Shown here piece by piece: positions 18,386 to 37,481 of a stretch of DNA of 38,677 nucleotides (the first letter of the stretch is position 1; each line of letters starts with the position of its first letter). A model generated the notes under the pieces. It had not been told where the DNA came from. It worked only from the letters and a program-made list of their open reading frames with translations, and did not search any database. Made by a program: the position numbers and the translations under genes. Source of the DNA: a virus; the IMG/VR virus record IMGVR_UViG_3300027419_000019, one strand, 5' to 3'.

Positions 18386-18615
18386 TGGTAAGCCCTCATC
18401 GCTTCCTGTTCCCGCTCCTTGCATCGCTGGCGGCTTGCTATCGTCGCCGGGCAGGTTGCACAGTCATAATATGGGGCATACCATGTCGGCTGCGGGTGCT
18501 CGCTCTCATTCCGGGAATAATTGCATGTGGCCGGAGGCTCGAACCAGCCGCACCCTTTCCGCTCCCCGGGGTTTTTCCGAAGTGATTTCCTCTTCGTGGC
18601 CGCCACTACAACCAC
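18382..18615 (-). CDS. Cys-rich mini-protein.
   Basis: 77-aa ORF with a GTG start. It contains GCGWFEPPATCNY…YYDCATCPAT and is translationally coupled to terS by an ATGA overlap. Confidence 0.5.
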   Translation of the reverse strand: MVVVAATKRKSLRKNPGERKGCGWFEPPATCNYSRNESEHPQPTWYAPYYDCATCPATIASRQRCKEREQEAMRAYQ

Positions 18616-19193
18616 CCCATATTACAGGCCCGCCACAGCACGACGTCTATCAATCCTATCTTTTCGGAGCCGCCGATCTCATCACGGATGTCCTGGCACA
18701 TACGAGTGCATATCTCCGCGGATTCGCGGGCCTTTGAAGAGTGTCCATATCCGAACGTGGCGGCAACCCGGCAGAGATGACGGTCGGGTTTCACGCAATC
18801 GATCCCGATATTCCGGGCCAGGTGTCGACAGGTGACCGGGCCGATCATCGGCAGGCTGTTGAGATAAGCGAGTTTGTCGTGCGCTGCCTGGAGATTTCGG
18901 AGCCATTCTGCGGCATGAGTGACGCCCTGCATGATGGCGGCCCGCTTCCGCAGGTTTGAGATTACATCGGGGTTTCGGGTATCAAAGAACCGGTCCCATT
19001 CCCTCCTGGCGTATTGTTCTTTCCAGTACGAGCAGAGGACCACGTAGACGTACTGCTCCAGGAAGTACTCAGGAGTGATTTTTTCAAGCGGAAAGTCGAG
19101 GACAGCCCGGACGTGGTTCAACTCAGCGCGGAATTCAGGAGAGGCTTCGAGCCGTCCCAGCATCGAGAGGTAGAGTGTAGTTATGGGACGCAT
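18606..19193 (-). CDS. HhH-GPD superfamily (endonuclease III / DNA glycosylase-like) protein.
   Basis: LNSLPMIGPVTCRHLARNIGIDCVKPDRHLCRVA matches the helix-hairpin-helix plus 'VDTH..R' pattern of EndoIII/AlkA-type glycosylases. The ATG at 19193 forms a TGATG overlap. The track ORF extends to 19199. Confidence 0.5.
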   Translation of the reverse strand: MRPITTLYLSMLGRLEASPEFRAELNHVRAVLDFPLEKITPEYFLEQYVYVVLCSYWKEQYARREWDRFFDTRNPDVISNLRKRAAIMQGVTHAAEWLRNLQAAHDKLAYLNSLPMIGPVTCRHLARNIGIDCVKPDRHLCRVAATFGYGHSSKARESAEICTRMCQDIRDEIGGSEKIGLIDVVLWRACNMGWL

Positions 19194-19327
19194 CACCACC
19201 CCTCCGCTGCTTCCCGGGTCTTCCGGTCCCGGTCCTTGCAGCGCTCCGGGTCAGCCTGTGCTCTCAGCTTGGTGAGCCGGTCGCAGCTGAGCGAGCCGTC
19301 GCAAGTATCACAATCGCCTTCAGCCAT
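19193..19327 (-). CDS. 44-aa Cys-containing mini-ORF (below the track cutoff).
   Basis: Hand translation gives MAEGDCDTCDGSLSCDRLTKLRAQADPERCKDRDRKTREAAEGW. It fills the gap exactly and overlaps both neighbours. Confidence 0.4.
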   Translation of the reverse strand: MAEGDCDTCDGSLSCDRLTKLRAQADPERCKDRDRKTREAAEGW

Positions 19328-23750: not shown

Positions 23751-23884
23751 GTCTTCACCTTCCGCCCTGCATTGTAGAACGTGATCCGCTCGTACCGTTT
23801 CTCGTCACCCGGGCCGATCACATTTCCTTTCATCGGGGCCTCTGCCTTTTTGGTGTCGGGACCCGATCCTGCTGCCCGGCACAT
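23747..23884 (-). CDS. 45-aa mini-ORF (C-terminal part of track ORF 23747..23995).
   Basis: MCRAAGSGPDTKKAEAPMKGNVIGPGDEKRYERITFYNAGRKVKT. The ATG at 23884 forms a TGATG overlap with the radical-SAM stop. Confidence 0.4.
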   Translation of the reverse strand: MCRAAGSGPDTKKAEAPMKGNVIGPGDEKRYERITFYNAGRKVKT

Positions 23885-24687
23885 CAGCAGGTCACCCCCG
23901 CTGCCTGCAGGTACGGTTGCAGGTCCTTCTTGAAGATGAATTTCTGGTTGTGGTGCCTGAGGAGGGCCTCGGCTCGCTGCACAAAGATCCTCCATTCATC
24001 ATCCGTCGGGTACCTGTACCCGGTTTTGCGGATGACTTCCTCGACATCGGGGATATTGGCGTGGTTGAACTTTCCGATCCGGTACTCGTCAACGAATCCG
24101 AGCGTTTGCCGGATCAGGTTGATGGTCTGGTCCGGGAAGACCACCGGCTCGAAGGATACCCACGTACGGATCCCGCGTTTCTTCGCCTCTCTGAGGGCCT
24201 CGATGCGTTCCGGCGTATGGGCCGCCCCGGGCTCCCAGATGCCCTTATCCTTGAGATTGTCGAAGACGAGCGTGGTCCCGTACCTGCAGAGCTCCGGGTG
24301 TTCGGCCATGAGGTCGAAGTCCCGGGTGCTGCGAGGTCCTCCTGCTTTCGTCAGGATCGTGAAGTGCAGCCCGTGCCGGATCAGGATCTCGATTGCCTTC
24401 CTGGTCAGCTGCAACTCATAGTCGAGCGGCTGGTATGGGTCAGTGGAGAAGCTGATCAGGATCTCCCGCTGGTCCTTGGCCGCTGCGAGTTCGGCACAGT
24501 CCTTCTCGAACTTCTTCAGGAAGTCCGGTTTCGGCTTTGCGGATTTTGAGAACTCGTCTGCACACATCCCCCGGATTTCAAGATTGAAACAGTAGATACA
24601 GCCATGACCGCAGCAGACATAAGGCCCGGAGATTGACAGCGGGGCATACTCTGCAGCACGGCCCCGGGGCACGTAGATGAGCCTCAT
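23884..24687 (-). CDS. Radical SAM enzyme, SplB/COG1533-like ('DNA repair photolyase' family).
   Basis: The N-terminal cluster GPYVCCGHGCIYCF is CxxxCxxC in the GC.HGC.YC context typical of COG1533. It is 267 aa with TIM-barrel-like alternating b/a segments (…ILISFSTDPYQP…FTILTKA…VSFEPV…). Confidence 0.75.
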   Translation of the reverse strand: MRLIYVPRGRAAEYAPLSISGPYVCCGHGCIYCFNLEIRGMCADEFSKSAKPKPDFLKKFEKDCAELAAAKDQREILISFSTDPYQPLDYELQLTRKAIEILIRHGLHFTILTKAGGPRSTRDFDLMAEHPELCRYGTTLVFDNLKDKGIWEPGAAHTPERIEALREAKKRGIRTWVSFEPVVFPDQTINLIRQTLGFVDEYRIGKFNHANIPDVEEVIRKTGYRYPTDDEWRIFVQRAEALLRHHNQKFIFKKDLQPYLQAAGVTC

Positions 24688-25094
24688 GCCGGCACCTCAA
24701 AAGGGAGTTTTGTCTGGAAAGGATCCTGTTCCGCCATGAATGCCTTATCCCGTTTTTCGTAGAAGACCTCCTGATCTTCCCAGCGCTTGAGCGCCTCCTT
24801 CAGTGGAGCGGCATCCTCGCGGAGCTCTCCAAGCTCCTTCCGGGCGTCGTTGAGATCCTGCTGGTGCTCGGCAATAATCGAGGCGTGGAACTCGATACTG
24901 TCCCGCAATTTTCCCGCCACTTCGTTGAGCTCTTCGAGATCCTTTTTAATAGAGGATATCTTGGCCTCTCGGATCCTTGCGAGTTCTTCCGGTGTCGCCC
25001 GGGGGTTTTTACAGGATCTACATGGCGGTTCCTGTCTACCGACGCGGCCGTCTTGTTCATTTTCCGTGCCACAATACGGGCAGATCCACGGCAT
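24684..25094 (-). CDS. Zinc-ribbon plus coiled-coil protein.
   Basis: MPWICPYCGTEN…PPCRSCKNP is followed by about 90 aa of heptad-like charged helix. The ATG at 25094 is 2 nt after the PCNA stop. The track ORF extends to 25286. Confidence 0.6.
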   Translation of the reverse strand: MPWICPYCGTENEQDGRVGRQEPPCRSCKNPRATPEELARIREAKISSIKKDLEELNEVAGKLRDSIEFHASIIAEHQQDLNDARKELGELREDAAPLKEALKRWEDQEVFYEKRDKAFMAEQDPFQTKLPFEVPA

Positions 25095-25096
25095 CG

Positions 25097-25822
25097 TCAA
25101 TCCCCCTCCAGCCTTGGCGCGAGGAAATACCCGCATTCCATCCCGTCCAGCTCGAAGTCGAACCGGATCGGGTGGTCCTGGCCGAGCAGTGCCGTGCACG
25201 TGCTCGCCCCTTTCATTGCCTTGCCGATCTCCTTCAGGTAGTCCAGCGAGAACAGCGAGCGGACTGCTGCGTCCGGCACCTGGCACTTTCCTGTCGATTC
25301 GAGGACCTTGTGCAGCTGATCAGTGTCCCCCTCCGCATCCAGGGCCAGCCCTTCCTTGCAGGTACCGAGCCGGACCTTGTCGCTGATCACGCCCATGGCC
25401 TTGATCGCTTCCTGCAGCTGGCCGGCATCGATGTCGATCGCGGCGGGGAGTGAGAGGGACGGCGGGTTCGGGCGCTTGCGGACCGTTTGGACGTCGAGCG
25501 GTGTGTGCTTGACCGTGTACCTGCCATCAGACATGATGAGCCGGCCTTCCTTCCGCTCGATCGTGATCGTGCTTTTTTCATCGTCCATGACCTTCAGGAA
25601 GTCTTTCAGCTTCATGAGGTCCAGCCCGATCTCGGCCTTCTCGGTCTCGGTGAATTCGTCGAACTGTGCTTTCGGCAGATTGGCGCTGACCATCGCGACG
25701 TTCGCGGTGTCCACGGCAAGGGTGTTCCACCCCTGATCGGTAATCATCAGCCTGCATTCCGGCACCAGGGCGCTCAGGACATTGCAGAACGCACTGAGCC
25801 GGGTCTGGGGGATCTTCATCAT
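25097..25822 (-). CDS. pcna: PCNA (archaeal/eukaryal-type DNA sliding clamp).
   Basis: 241 aa with a two-domain clamp pattern: …FCNVLSALVPECRLMITDQGWNTLAVDTANVAMVSANLPKAQFDEF…SLFSLDYLKEIGKAM…IRFDFELDGMECGYFLAPRLE. The terminal 'Y.LAPR.E' is a PCNA hallmark. Confidence 0.85.
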   Translation of the reverse strand: MMKIPQTRLSAFCNVLSALVPECRLMITDQGWNTLAVDTANVAMVSANLPKAQFDEFTETEKAEIGLDLMKLKDFLKVMDDEKSTITIERKEGRLIMSDGRYTVKHTPLDVQTVRKRPNPPSLSLPAAIDIDAGQLQEAIKAMGVISDKVRLGTCKEGLALDAEGDTDQLHKVLESTGKCQVPDAAVRSLFSLDYLKEIGKAMKGASTCTALLGQDHPIRFDFELDGMECGYFLAPRLEGD

Positions 25823-28800
25823 GGGGTTTCACACTCCTTCGGTTTCTTCGGGGATCGTTTCTTCTTCGATGGTGGTTTTTTCTCGGCGATTTTGACTCCG
25901 GGTTTCCAGCCACTACATCCGTCTTTTTTGACGGAAGAGATGAGATCTTCCGCTTTTAATTTCCCACTCACAACATCGTCGAAAGAGGGGCAATCTCTTA
26001 GGATGATCCCCCCACCGCACCCCAGACAATTATCGCAGTTTTTTTCCGCACCGTATTCTTTCGAGGGTTCCTTATGCTCTACCAACTGCTTGAGGGCGTG
26101 CATCCTCTTTCCCTGGGGGAGGTCCTGGACCGGGTTGATGATTTCAACACCATGGAAGGCCCCCTCGATAATGCGCTGGTGGATCTGTCCGCAGAGGAGA
26201 GTGATCTTTTTCACTACTGCGAGGTCCGGATCGGCCTTGGCCCGCTGCTGGACCATGTCGAAGAATTCCGGATCATTCTCGATATCCTCCGGTGAGACAT
26301 CGTAGTTCTCGATCTCGTCTCCCGGGCGAATCAGGCCGTACTTGTCGGAGAGGATGTAATACTCGTCCCCCTCAAACACGTGCTCTGCATATTTCCTTGC
26401 CAGAGTGAAGAGGGGCCCGGTATATGCTTCACGGGCGACAACGCGGGCCGGGGTCTTCTTCCTTCCCTTCGCGGGTTCATCCCAGATTTTGGCCTTTCCG
26501 CAGGAGATGATACAGATCTCGCGGTATCCCCATCGGGGCGATGCGGGTTCTCCATCCTCCTCAAGTCTCCTTACGTGTTCTTCGAATTCCCAGCAGCCGT
26601 CATTGCCATCTTCATCGATACACTCGATCTTGCAGACCTTGCACGGCCCCTCGATATCATCGGTAGGATAATCTGGCTTCGGTCTTGGCCTTAAGGAGAA
26701 GTGGACCTTTGAACCATCCGGGCGGGTCTCCTCGATTTGATTCTTGATGGAGACGGCCCCCTGGTAGGTATCCGCCCCTTCGTACAGCCATTCACCTTTT
26801 GCGGGGTCGTGCTTCCAGACCTCCCAGATCCAGCCGGGATTATTCCTGCGTTTTGCCTCGGTGAGCGCTTCGAACCACTCTGGAGTGTCCCGTTTCGGTT
26901 TTACCGGCTTGATGGGGACGCTGCAACCCACCGCCGCCCTCTCTTCGAAGGTCTTCCTATCACACCTCTCACTGATCGTGCAGTTGCCAAGATCGTTGAT
27001 CTCCTTGCATCGATCGTTCTTATCGAGCCAGTGCCCGCATCTCTCCCGCTGTGTCTCCTCCATCAGGACCTTGGCACTCTTGGTTCCTTTCATGAACAGG
27101 AGTTCTCCAAGGCGTGGACATGAGGGGTGGAATGTTTTCTTGCCCTTGTGATGGCCGCAGGTCCCGCAGGTGCCGGGAGTCGGGCCACCGGGACCGGCCG
27201 GGTGACGGCCTTGCTCTCCCTCGTCCCGCTCCTCCTGGGCTTTGATGATGGCCTTCACCGCATCCAGGCAACCGGCATAAGGATCCCTCCTCAGGCAGTC
27301 CTTGTAGACGTCACACTCGATGCAGACCTGTGAAATGGGGTTTTCAGGATCGGGGCGGGAAGGCCCCCTGGTCCTCTTTATCAGGCACTTTGGATCGTCC
27401 TGGCCCTTGCAGCCATCTTCGCACTTATCACAAACGTCGTGCCAAATTTGCTTGACGGTCTTCCCTGTAGTATCATAGATCGCGGCCTGCTTGCTGGTGT
27501 CTTTTTCCTCCTTGATTTCCCTGGGCGCCGTTTGATCCGGCTCCTCCCCTCCAAACGTGAACAGGCCGATCGGCTGCTGCTGCAGCTCGCGGACCGCGAT
27601 CGCGTGGGTCTTCGGCTCGATCTCGAACCCGATCCACTCCATACCAAGCAGGTTGGCGGCAATCAGGGACGTGCCGGTACCCGCATACGGGTCCAGCAGG
27701 ATCTCCCCGGGTGCCATGAACCGGCTGATAATGCCGAGAACATCATGCACGGACTGCTGCCATGGGTGGAATTTCTTCTGCCTGAAGCCACGGACAACAT
27801 CCGAGAAACACCTTCGGACTCCTTTGATGTCCCCTCCTTCCGGGATCTTCTGGAAGACGAGAATCGGTTTGTGCAGGCAGAGGGCGTTCCACTTGTGGGC
27901 TTTCACGGCCGGTCCTGAGTTCAAGGAGGAGATGATCCAGAAGTAGACCAGCGTGCAGCCGTCCTTGAGGTCCGGGTCATGAGAGCAATACAGCTGCTCC
28001 ATGATCTCGGCAAGGTGGGCCTGCGGGGCATACGTGAATAGGAACCCGTACGGTTTCAGGACCCGGGTTGCGAGCTCGCAGAGGTCCGCGTATGCCTGCT
28101 CCCATAGTTCCTTGATATACGGCGGATCGGTGAAAATCCCATCAACCGAGCACGACGGGACCTTTTCGCCCAGCTCCACCACGTCGCCCAGGTGCACGGT
28201 CCCGAGTTGGAGGTCCGTGATCCATGCCCGCCGGCCCTTGGTCTTCTGGTCTTCCTTGCACCCGGCACAGACGTACCCGGGGATCGGCTTGCCGTATCGT
28301 TCACGGCAGTCTTCGCAGACGTGATCGGATTTCGCCTTACGCTTGCGCTTCTCAGGGGTTGCCGTCTTTTCTGAGGACAATACCGGTTTCGAGTTGTCTC
28401 CTGAAGGGGTCTCGCGATCCGGGTGCTCCCTGAGGTACTCTTCGGCATCCTGAAGGCAACCGGCATAAGCCGGGGCGAACATGCACTTGCCGGCCCACTT
28501 GCATGATGTGGGGCAGCCGGCACGGTTCAACTCCTCAGTGTTATCAGTGTGTGGTTTTTCTACGTTTTCTGTAGGTTCCTGTACCCGAGTGGCGGCCGAG
28601 GCCTTCAACAACTTCGGGGGGATTTTCCAGAGCGGGCAGCCGCGGCCACCATAGAGGGCCGATTTCTTCATCCGAATTATCGGGCAGAGTTCGGTATTCC
28701 CGTCAATCCACTCGTCGCGATCTTTCCCGTCCGGGCATACACCCATGGCACACATTCCCATGACGGGGTTGTCATCCCTGCAATGCTCAAGGCGCATTTC

Positions 28801-29235
28801 CACCAGGGTGCGGAGCCGTTCGATCTGGTCTTCTTGCCGAGGGTTTCCGAGCACGTTGCACGGGCAGACTGCAAAGGAGCCGAGAGCCCAGCCGGTCAGC
28901 GCACAGACGCCTTTTTTGACCTTGCGGCCCTTCTCGCTCTCACCTTCCGACACCAGTTTGTACGGGCAGGCGTCCGGGCAGTTCTTCACGCCAGGGCTTG
29001 GGCTGTTGAACTCACTGGTGTTGAGCCGGGCGCTGATGCGGCGGATAAACTGCTCATCGTCCATTTCCTTGACGCACATCGGCATGGCGCCCGGCATCCC
29101 GTGAATAACGGCACATGTTTGCGGGCTGTCCGGATATTCGGGATCTCGCTGCAGGTCCGGGCACTTCCTCGCCCGGCAGTCCTTGATGCCCCACTTGCTC
29201 TCTTTCTTCTCCGGGGCTCCGCAGCAATCGCTCAT
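25819..29235 (-). CDS. Giant Cys-rich multidomain protein. It has an N-terminal Cys-rich region, a beta-class N6/N4 DNA methyltransferase (DPPY), a Cys-rich linker, a DUF6884/YaaA-like domain and a Lys-rich tail.
   Basis: Track ORF 25819..29265 (1148 aa). MSDCCG at 29235 forms an ATGA overlap with the wHTH stop. MTase motif IV is SVDGIFTDPPY (28117-28128). Motif I is ILLDPYAGTGTSLIAANLLGMEWIGFEIEP (about 27670-27693). The C-terminal ICIISCGKAK…AREAYTGPLFTLARKYAE…YYILSDKYGLIRPGDEIENYDV (26080-26523) resembles DUF6884. Confidence 0.8.
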   Translation of the reverse strand: MSDCCGAPEKKESKWGIKDCRARKCPDLQRDPEYPDSPQTCAVIHGMPGAMPMCVKEMDDEQFIRRISARLNTSEFNSPSPGVKNCPDACPYKLVSEGESEKGRKVKKGVCALTGWALGSFAVCPCNVLGNPRQEDQIERLRTLVEMRLEHCRDDNPVMGMCAMGVCPDGKDRDEWIDGNTELCPIIRMKKSALYGGRGCPLWKIPPKLLKASAATRVQEPTENVEKPHTDNTEELNRAGCPTSCKWAGKCMFAPAYAGCLQDAEEYLREHPDRETPSGDNSKPVLSSEKTATPEKRKRKAKSDHVCEDCRERYGKPIPGYVCAGCKEDQKTKGRRAWITDLQLGTVHLGDVVELGEKVPSCSVDGIFTDPPYIKELWEQAYADLCELATRVLKPYGFLFTYAPQAHLAEIMEQLYCSHDPDLKDGCTLVYFWIISSLNSGPAVKAHKWNALCLHKPILVFQKIPEGGDIKGVRRCFSDVVRGFRQKKFHPWQQSVHDVLGIISRFMAPGEILLDPYAGTGTSLIAANLLGMEWIGFEIEPKTHAIAVRELQQQPIGLFTFGGEEPDQTAPREIKEEKDTSKQAAIYDTTGKTVKQIWHDVCDKCEDGCKGQDDPKCLIKRTRGPSRPDPENPISQVCIECDVYKDCLRRDPYAGCLDAVKAIIKAQEERDEGEQGRHPAGPGGPTPGTCGTCGHHKGKKTFHPSCPRLGELLFMKGTKSAKVLMEETQRERCGHWLDKNDRCKEINDLGNCTISERCDRKTFEERAAVGCSVPIKPVKPKRDTPEWFEALTEAKRRNNPGWIWEVWKHDPAKGEWLYEGADTYQGAVSIKNQIEETRPDGSKVHFSLRPRPKPDYPTDDIEGPCKVCKIECIDEDGNDGCWEFEEHVRRLEEDGEPASPRWGYREICIISCGKAKIWDEPAKGRKKTPARVVAREAYTGPLFTLARKYAEHVFEGDEYYILSDKYGLIRPGDEIENYDVSPEDIENDPEFFDMVQQRAKADPDLAVVKKITLLCGQIHQRIIEGAFHGVEIINPVQDLPQGKRMHALKQLVEHKEPSKEYGAEKNCDNCLGCGGGIILRDCPSFDDVVSGKLKAEDLISSVKKDGCSGWKPGVKIAEKKPPSKKKRSPKKPKECETP

Positions 29236-30004: not shown

Positions 30005-30222
30005 TCAGCCCCCAACTGCCGGCAGGCCGCCTGAATAACATCATCAAGGCTGCACCGGGTATACATGACGGTCCGCTGGATGTTTCCACAGATTTTGCAC
30101 TTCAACAAAAGTTTGGCCTCATAGAGACCCTCATATTCATGATCTTCTGAATATGGGGGAGGTGCGATCAGGAGCATATGAGAGCCGCACCGAAGACAGG
30201 TAACGCCGATTATCGCCATCAC
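29998..30222 (-). CDS. Zinc-ribbon mini-protein.
   Basis: 74 aa with CLRCGS…CKICGN. Confidence 0.6.
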   Translation of the reverse strand: MMAIIGVTCLRCGSHMLLIAPPPYSEDHEYEGLYEAKLLLKCKICGNIQRTVMYTRCSLDDVIQAACRQLGADC

Positions 30223-30449
30223 GGCACCGCCTTAGCCGGCTCGTTGAATTGGGAGATCCTTGTCTGTGCCTTAACCAGGGCGAGGGCTGCCTGCCATGTG
30301 AGCCATTTCTCATAATGCTCTTTACAACAGAACCATTCCTCGACCTTTGTACCGGTCCGGGTTTCATACCCTCCCTGGTGCGTTGCCTCAGGATATCCGC
30401 ACCAGGCGCACTTGTGCAGCTCGACTGACGACGGTTTATGTTTGGTCAT
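30219..30449 (-). CDS. Cys-containing mini-protein (first gene after the AT-rich intergenic region).
   Basis: 76 aa: …HKCAWCGYPEATH…WFCCKEHYEKW…. Confidence 0.6.
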   Translation of the reverse strand: MTKHKPSSVELHKCAWCGYPEATHQGGYETRTGTKVEEWFCCKEHYEKWLTWQAALALVKAQTRISQFNEPAKAVP

Positions 30450-36536: not shown

Positions 36537-37481
36537 ATGGCCCGTAAAAAGCAGGTAGTCGCTCCAACCCCCCATAAGGATCGGTTATTGTTCTTTGACC
36601 TTCTGAAGATCCTATTTATCGCCATAATCGTTTACGACCACTCGCAGCTCTTCATCCTCAGGGATTTTAATGGCCTGCTGTTCTCCGATGGCTGGAACTT
36701 CTATAATATTTATATCAACGGACTCACGGGAATCGCAGTTTACGGCATGTTTTTTATCAGCGGGGCGGTGCTGGAATACTCATATAAGAGAGTTGGCACA
36801 TGGGAGTCGTATTATACCTTCATTAAGAACCGTGTGACACGATTATATCCCGCGTTCTGGATGAGCTTGATCCTGGGTCTGGCGCTTGTCATAATTACGA
36901 ACGCATCCATCACGGCACAAATATTCGTAAGTTCCCTGCCGGACATCCTGTTTGAGTATACGGGGTACTATGTCCTTTTGAATCAGGGGCCGGGTCTCAT
37001 CAACAATATGAGCTGGTTTATCGCTGCAATCGTATCCATTTATCTTATTTTTCCCCTTGTCTCCGACACAGTCAGGAAGTACCGGATATATGCGATCGTC
37101 GCTTTTATGATCGTAAGCTTCAGCTTGCGGGTCCTCCTGCTCACTTATGCCGGAAGTATTCCGCAAGATCTTCTGTGGAGGTGGTTCCCCCTCTGCAACC
37201 TCTTCGAGTTCGGACTCGGGATCTATATCATACAAGCCGGGATTTACCCGAAGATCCCGAACACATCTACAGTCCTGCGGGAACTTGTCGATCTTAGCTT
37301 CTACGTCTTCCTCTTCCACATGATCGTAATCTGGAGCGTAATCCCGATACTGCCAAAAACAGGGCCGGAATACATCGGGGTTATTGCTTACTTCCTGATG
37401 ATGGCGGTGATGCTTGCGGTCTGTTGGATCGTGATGACGATCGATAAAAAAATCCAGAAGGGGCTCCGTCAATCCGGTTGA
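36537..37481 (+). CDS. Acyltransferase family 3 (integral-membrane O-acyltransferase).
   Basis: 314 aa with about 10 hydrophobic helices. The N-terminal signature LLFFDLLKILFIAIIVYDHSQL corresponds to the AT3 'D.lR..a...Vv..H' motif. Local GC is visibly lower than in the rest of the genome. Confidence 0.8.
   Translation: MARKKQVVAPTPHKDRLLFFDLLKILFIAIIVYDHSQLFILRDFNGLLFSDGWNFYNIYINGLTGIAVYGMFFISGAVLEYSYKRVGTWESYYTFIKNRVTRLYPAFWMSLILGLALVIITNASITAQIFVSSLPDILFEYTGYYVLLNQGPGLINNMSWFIAAIVSIYLIFPLVSDTVRKYRIYAIVAFMIVSFSLRVLLLTYAGSIPQDLLWRWFPLCNLFEFGLGIYIIQAGIYPKIPNTSTVLRELVDLSFYVFLFHMIVIWSVIPILPKTGPEYIGVIAYFLMMAVMLAVCWIVMTIDKKIQKGLRQSG

Follow-up and report, generated by a model that had tools for sequence, protein, structure and literature searches.

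The virus and the layout of the locus

The window, by which we mean the whole stretch of 38,677 nucleotides analysed here, is judged by its sequence to be a tailed virus of Methanomicrobiales of about 38.7 kb, and its terminase, portal, head-morphogenesis, tail tube, Dit and tape-measure genes assign it to the siphovirus-like head–tail type. The longest contig bearing the window PCNA has 38,691 nt, so the window spans almost the entire record. One contig matches the whole stretch with zero differences and may represent the source sample, and the sequencing runs that contain window DNA are groundwater metagenomes. The closest GenBank virus is vir524 (BK063669), whose host is given as Methanomicrobiales, and homologs of the window PCNA carry the host label Methanoregula or Methanoregulaceae, one of them lying inside a 3 Mb chromosome. 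No match to polymerase, primase, helicase or RFC families was found among 58 further ORFs of the window.

On the minus strand, the locus runs from a giant mosaic Cys-rich protein (25819..29235) through the viral PCNA (25097..25822) to a 136-aa zinc-ribbon/coiled-coil protein (24684..25094) and, as context only, a radical SAM protein (23884..24687; PA0069/Rv2578c-like, below cut-offs). The giant has 1138 aa from ATG 29235 or 1148 aa from GTG 29265; residue numbers below count from GTG 29265, and 10 is to be subtracted for the likelier ATG 29235. It consists of Cys-rich modules, a beta-class methyltransferase (MTase), a PIP-like tail, a DUF6884 domain and a Lys-rich C-terminus. DUF6884 (aa 935-1060, 26086..26463, minus strand; Pfam E 2e-17) is a YaaA-like, putative DNA-lesion-binding domain (PMC11701544), and it is a possible second cargo of a clamp tether.

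A virus-encoded PCNA with an intact pocket

The PCNA ORF encodes 241 aa in which Pfam PCNA_N and PCNA_C are both above cut-off; its NCBIfam NF002222 score of 200.6 bits is slightly below the cut-off of 207. The AF2 model has a pLDDT of 95, and Foldseek aligns it with A. fulgidus PCNA (1rwz) at TM 0.90. About 66 proteins form a virus-specific clade that is split from host Methanomicrobiales PCNA with 100/100 support, in a tree without outgroup that shows the split and not its direction. The 66 members of this clade are 45-65% identical to the viral PCNA and host PCNAs 41-45%. These relatives were recovered by an alignment-based search of viral contigs, a single-sequence search having given none, and a search of genome contigs with the viral PCNA returned host-level matches only (39-45% identity).

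The PIP pocket is intact (D38, A40-V42, M44, P121, L125, H217, P218, A235-R237), and its residues are identical between viral and host PCNA. Conservation of 18 pocket positions is 0.90 in the viral clade and 0.65 overall (p about 1e-4), for a position list that was picked after part of the data had been seen. The string QTRLSAF at the PCNA N-terminus was considered as a PIP and rejected, since in the PCNA fold it spans strand 1 to helix 1.

The methyltransferase domain and its tail

The MTase domain of the giant (aa 352-561, 27583..28212, minus strand) is assigned by Pfam N6_N4_Mtase to beta-class N6-adenine/N4-cytosine DNA MTases. Motif IV, DPPY (28117-28128), precedes motif I, DPYAGTGT (27670-27693), in a Rossmann-like fold; the AF2 model has a pLDDT of 86, and its top Foldseek matches are CcrM, N4CMT and M1.HpyAVI. 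The catalytic motifs are intact, and they are conserved in the aligned homologs. DNMT1-type C5 catalytic motifs are not those of this domain, which is an amino-MTase with DPPY; by analogy, the giant's MTase may work like DNMT1, though it is not a member of that family.

The last MTase helix (aa 551-561) is directly followed by the string QQPIGLFTF (Q563-Q-P565-I-G-L568-F-T-F571, 27553..27579, minus strand), to which the preliminary description had drawn attention as a degenerate PIP and which is indeed present. Among 28 homologs the tail follows the pattern Q563-x-P565-h-[DGT]-L568-x-x-F571: Q563 is found in 28/28, residue 566 is hydrophobic in 28/28, and L568 and P565 are retained in 25/28 and 23/28. 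The aromatic column is F571 (23/28, plus one W), F569 being present in only 8/28. The register first proposed, Q563-x-x-I566-x-x-F569, must thus be abandoned, the more so as the co-fold described below buries L568 and F571; in the model, the docking register is P565(1)-L568(4)-F571(7). The codons of the tail P, L and F differ synonymously among homologs, so the constraint acts on the protein. Stand-alone MTase homologs mostly terminate a few residues past the tail, solved beta-class MTases are alignable only as far as the helix before it, and AF2 renders it as coil outside the MTase fold with confidence declining through 72, 67 and 58. The aromatic residue is lost from the tail in the giant of one relative (L041). 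A co-occurring strain hardly differs from the window over 26953-27763, a stretch that takes in the tail; it diverges in the MTase's N-terminal half.

Compared with the canonical PIP Q-x-x-[LIM]-x-x-[FY]-[FY], the tail has the aliphatic residue at position 4 and the aromatic residue at position 7, and it lacks both the Gln at position 1, where 23/28 homologs have Pro, and the aromatic residue at position 8, which is G572 in a variable column. PIPs of five Methanomicrobiales genomes, namely QKTLDAWF (Fen1), RTTLFDF and RTTLAQW (PolB), QSQLFDF and QKSLMDF (RNase HII) and QSTLFDGF (RFC-L), have a common L-x-x-F/W core; those of PolB are without Gln, and those of RNase HII and PolB likewise do without an aromatic residue at position 8. 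PIGLFTF equals host PIPs such as QSQLFDF and RTTLFDF at L4, F5 and F7 and differs by Pro at position 1. Among confirmed PCNA ligands 34% are without Gln, and Pro is tolerated at position 1; acidic flanks weaken binding to human PCNA (PMC6881253), and the C-flank of the tail is acidic with a net charge of -3. With a profile derived from host PIPs, which has one wrong sequence among its seeds, PIGLFTF scores 1.6, the best site in the giant has p=0.94, and 0/14 MTase-bearing giants are significant. In this genome alone neither the tail nor QTKLPFE, the string at the end of the zinc-ribbon protein, beats chance, and their support is conservation and modelling only.

Elsewhere in the window, a 76-aa Cys/His protein (30219-30449, minus strand) has, close to its C-terminal end, the string QTRISQF, which looks like a canonical PIP and has p about 0.06 taken alone.

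Modelled docking of the tail

When PCNA was co-folded with aa 552-585 of the giant (34 residues), the ipSAE was 0.63, compared with 0.01 for the best of three controls. Individual runs gave 0.02, 0.65 and 0.63, so that the tail docked in two of three, and the failed run had a pLDDT of 39. Agreement of contacts between runs amounted to at least 25% and the partner pLDDT to at least 39, and such a mark is attained by 58/80 solved complexes and 2/110 mismatched pairs. In the model L568 contacts PCNA residues 41-44, 218 and 233-235, and F571 contacts 217-218 and 235; overall the tail touches 40-44, 112-123, 217-218 and 233-238, which is the IDCL/C-terminal pocket. A predicted complex of the kind that the preliminary description had recommended places this fragment in the PIP pocket. 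Complexes of PCNA with PIP peptides are textbook structures, so this result possibly reflects memory; it shows likeness to a PIP and not binding. As a flexible segment that occupies the pocket in the model, the tail would be a PCNA-interacting motif in the broad sense.

The junction with PCNA and gene order

The ATG of PCNA at 25822 shares 4 nt with the TGA of the giant in the junction CCCC ATG ATG A, and the overlap and a Shine-Dalgarno-like sequence for PCNA lie within the giant's last codons (25819..25840, minus strand). The ATGA junction had been correctly noted, and matched stoichiometry of the two proteins had been read from it. A −4 overlap is present at this junction in 20/28 clade loci; it is likewise present at 45/77 junctions (58%) across four related early operons and at many junctions of the window. 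Being the operon default, it gives no ground for special stoichiometry, and dedicated coupling was rejected; the overlap suggests ordinary translational coupling and is uninformative about a specific complex. The giant's terminal ETP was also rejected as a protein motif, as it overlaps the ribosome-binding site.

A giant homolog lies directly upstream of PCNA in 26/27 distinct relatives, with homologs ranging from about 135 to >1100 aa and their modules shuffled. An MTase is found in the gene abutting PCNA in 15/27 informative loci, the window counted and L012 included though its MTase-bearing frame splits shortly before PCNA; it is truncated in 1 and lacking in 11. Conservation of the PCNA–MTase gene pair, which had been put forward as a check, accordingly held for adjacency to the giant and only partly for adjacency to an MTase, and the pair is not obligate. 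The slot upstream of PCNA holds at least four MTase types: the short beta-class type of the window; a longer one, also beta-class, that is fused into the giant (L014, L201); free-standing beta-class MTases that lie between the giant and PCNA (L002, L041); and, in L202, a C5 MTase. An MTase also directly adjoins PCNA in the more distant viruses L021, L028, L029, L032, L034, L035 and L037, and none is directly beside PCNA in halovirus-like PCNA loci.

Some further features of these operons were observed. The Lys-rich C-terminal end of the giant and the AAACCCCATG that follows it (25819-25870, minus strand) are retained in most relatives despite replacement of the remainder. A recurrent module in the giants of L002, L015, L042, L202 and L206 ends in a string like G-E-F-S-I-x-D-F-F; this string is similar to a PIP whose first position is Glu, and it may be structural. 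In relatives L001, L003, L004 and L202 an SMC/Rad50-like ATPase of about 805 aa lies upstream in the same operon; it is absent from the window.

Tails of MTases in other viruses and hosts

An aliphatic-x-x-aromatic core was sought within 30 residues past the last MTase helix, with a regular expression chosen after part of the data had been seen and in homologs that are related to each other. With these limits, the core is present in 22/26 N4/N6 MTase tails from archaeal viral loci that encode PCNA (shuffled mean 5.4), and when these MTases are treated as 10 sequence clusters, 7 are positive and 1.9 are expected (P about 6e-4). Tails of canonical type among them are QGKIGSWF, QVGLDKW, QVDLFKF and PARLDRWF. 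In host genomes the core is found in 6/20 MTase tails (shuffled 3.7). The host-genome N4/N6 MTases L232 (QTSISQYF) and L221 (QSRLF), from host genomes G003 and G005, have PIP-like tails.

A different tail type emerges among 79 MTases whose loci, on other viral contigs, contain no PCNA; these contigs are probably mostly bacterial phages, the host having been checked for L308 only, whose best relatives lie in bacterial phages. The PIP core is not enriched there (17 vs 12.9), and the beta-clamp-type motif Q-x-x-L-F is present in 39 (4.8 when shuffled), as in QGDLF, QPDLF and QKSLF. In the MTase tails of L277-L349 this motif often occurs twice. As the tail type changes with the clamp type, clamp binding is the best explanation.

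Giants that have no MTase also bear on this question. A significant PIP by the host profile is found in 6/11 of them and in 12/111 control ORFs (Fisher p=0.001), and the motifs, QATLDDF, QGTLFEF, NATLFDF and QKSIFSF, lie in the slot that the MTase usually occupies. The MTase subfamily of the window recurs, with the tail Q-K-P-L-D-L-Y-S-F, in a small element that encodes a rolling-circle Rep (L267-L270), where no match to a PCNA gene was found within the loci examined. In L267-L270 the MTase is joined to part of the Cys-rich region of the giant, and L267 is flanked by chromosomal genes.

Genes downstream of PCNA

The zinc-ribbon/coiled-coil protein matched no informative family, and its structure-atlas leads were all under 0.9. 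It ends in QTKLPFEVPA, as the preliminary description reported in naming it a further candidate for clamp binding, with QTKLPF at 24699-24716 (minus strand). Q-x-x-L-P-F-E is retained in 6/6 close homologs. As a PIP the string fares poorly: its Phe is off-register at position 6, no aromatic residue stands at 7 or 8, QTKLPFE scores 2.2 with the host PIP profile, and the L-P-F codons are CTC CCT TTT in 6/6 homologs, though CCT (8%) and TTT (15%) are rare here. The next gene's ribosome-binding site, GAGG, follows these codons without a gap. A nucleotide signal or a recombination boundary would account for QTKLPF at least as well as a PIP. The EVPA that follows was rejected as a protein motif, since its codons overlap that ribosome-binding site. 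At 24695-24707 (minus strand), CTCCCTTTTGAG precedes the start of the following gene and is invariant in six loci whose downstream genes differ; it is a possible RNA hairpin, terminator-like or recombination-boundary sequence.

In 14 relatives, loci L003, L012, L014-L018, L025, L040, L200, L202, L205 and L206 among them, the zinc-ribbon gene is replaced by that of an unrelated small protein, HicB-like by eye, for which no PHROG match was found. Past its domain, 13/14 copies have [NDH]-x-x-L-x-x-[FY], and the L006 copy lacks exactly this segment. From this pattern, the replacement protein appears to be a good candidate PCNA client, and a better one than the zinc-ribbon protein. One or two genes downstream of PCNA, the radical SAM gene and DUF5131 alternate across the clade.

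A probable clamp-tethered methyltransferase and its alternatives

We regard it as fairly probable, from the conserved tail, the gene order, the intact pocket and the co-fold, that the tail docks in PCNA and that viral DNA is methylated from the clamp. The viral PCNA, which comes without polymerase or RFC of its own, would probably be loaded by host RFC, by analogy with T. kodakarensis PCNA2. The giant would then be a mosaic clamp client, in which P565-x-x-L568-x-x-F571, located right behind the SAM-binding helix, enters the PIP pocket, as modelled. The MTase, and DUF6884 in the same chain, would be held on clamps remaining on newly copied viral DNA, and the daughter strands would be methylated promptly, most plausibly against host restriction; binding in cells, clamp loading, and the timing and purpose of methylation are what we infer here. 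In giants that lack the MTase, its slot frequently holds a canonical PIP; clamp binding would thus be the constant feature and the MTase an exchangeable cargo. The tethering first proposed thus survives in its core, and it was shorn of its original register, of dedicated coupling, of the obligate gene pair and of QTKLPF. A specific need for the viral clamp is likewise unsupported, since the same tail occurs on the element without PCNA and the host pocket is alike. The tail probably has two partners, viral PCNA and host PCNA, and the viral gene would provide extra clamp for several viral clients; that the tail can bind either clamp, with the viral gene boosting clamp supply, is the safest reading.

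The shared pocket and the Rep element would also suit a tail that is a PIP for host PCNA, in which case the viral PCNA would have another job, serving the host polymerase on viral DNA or small downstream clients, and adjacency would reflect only that the genes share an early operon, one slot of which is prone to recombination. The PIP-like tails of the two host-genome MTases and the ordinariness of the −4 overlap agree with this, but the order of giant and PCNA is retained in 26/27 relatives despite reshuffled giant content, and unrelated MTases recur beside PCNA, including in the distant viruses L021, L028, L032, L034 and L037, and we therefore consider it unlikely, though the least so of the alternatives. 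More doubtful still is a purely structural tail, a fold cap or dimer part of the MTase subfamily without any clamp, the co-fold being memory. Packing on the MTase is conceivable for a segment that stands straight after the last helix with an invariant Q563 and an always hydrophobic residue 566, and the monomer pLDDT of about 72, the low host-profile score and the one failed co-fold run would fit. However, solved beta-class MTases are alignable only to the last helix, the L-x-x-F/W core recurs in the differing tails of unrelated MTase types, and in other phages it gives way to Q-x-x-L-F.

PIP-like motifs are present in giants without MTase and DUF6884 (L009, L010, L011, L017) and in 13/14 copies of the alternative downstream protein. 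Such motifs could also belong to decoys, that is, the giant and small PIP proteins would occupy host PCNA and stall or divert host replication and repair while the virus relies on its own clamp, with methylation incidental. This seems very improbable to us, as, with a host-like viral pocket, the viral clamp would itself be blocked by a decoy, the MTase catalytic motifs are conserved, and the acidic flanks point to binding that is weak and exchangeable and not to a tight inhibitor.

Beyond the tethered MTase, a wider reading is tentative, and we hold it to be possible rather than probable: in these viruses of methanogens the stand-alone PCNA may serve chiefly as a platform for viral DNA-modifying clients, with interchangeable PIP genes on both sides, and clamp-coupled methylation may be a general strategy of prokaryotic viruses, MTase tails switching between PIP and beta-clamp type with host domain. 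The flanking genes would then be, upstream, the mosaic giant, whose MTase and DUF6884 are swappable cargo, and, downstream, the small protein.

Comparison with known systems

In mammals DNMT1 binds PCNA, as PMC9690074 states with reference to Iida et al. 2002. On that account, the likeness to the giant lies in a large protein with an MTase, a PCNA-binding motif and Cys-rich zinc-binding modules, and in the proposed action on newly replicated DNA. DNMT1, however, is a host C5 CpG maintenance enzyme, whereas the window encodes a beta-class amino-MTase of an archaeal virus; homology is limited to the SAM fold, the window motif comes after the catalytic domain, and the clamp is virus-encoded. The archaeal PIP consensus is QxxLxxFx (PMC7776575). 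With archaeal PIP clients (Fen1, PolB, RFC-L, RNase HII; PDB 1rxm, 3p83) the tail shares the L-x-x-F core, a flexible segment after the catalytic domain and, as modelled, the same pocket; unlike them, it has Pro at position 1 with an invariant Gln two residues earlier, an acidic flank and no aromatic residue at 8, and in the fused form the motif is internal.

Stand-alone viral or proviral PCNAs without polymerase or RFC, as in the window, are those of TK0582, phiCh1, phiH, HHTV-1 and vir524. The T. kodakarensis provirus PCNA2, TK0582 (PMC3914693, PMC2962436), co-purifies with host RFC-L (PMC2962436), which is a precedent for host loading. The PCNA of vir524 (BK063669) is 53% identical to that of the window, and an annotated DNA methyltransferase overlaps its pcn by 4 nt; the window clade itself is distinct from host and halovirus PCNAs. 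The role of stand-alone viral PCNAs is a stated open question (PMC4889955), and in the papers found no viral client is named for those of archaeal viruses. Bacterial beta-clamp clients use QL[S/D]LF motifs (PMC11139829), and beta-class MTases of other phages with Q-x-x-L-F at the same post-helix position are the apparent bacterial counterpart, from which the window tail differs in clamp and in motif spacing. The word 'methyl' is absent from that review, so no methyltransferases are among the clients it discusses, and a literature search, thin on subscription papers, found no report of clamp-binding tails in prokaryotic or viral MTases. Virus-encoded PCNA, an MTase beside pcn (annotated in vir524) and the DNMT1–PCNA precedent are known already.

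The locus offers a named candidate client for the clamp of small dsDNA viruses that have no polymerase or loader. With the residue-level prediction of L568 and F571 and the natural controls of MTase-less giants and the PCNA-less element, the question is testable with purified proteins. If the clamp-tethered reading is true, replication-coupled methylation, known from DNMT1, reaches an unrelated, viral enzyme class, and it hints at how viral DNA escapes restriction during copying.

Other genes of the window

A 197-aa ORF at 18606-19199 (minus strand) has the helix-hairpin-helix-like string LPMIGPVT and is DNA-glycosylase-like by eye, with no NCBIfam match for the ORF. On the opposite strand, in a region of lower GC (48%), an Acyltransferase_3 (O-acetyltransferase) gene lies at 36537-37481 (plus strand) and is a possible surface-modification moron.
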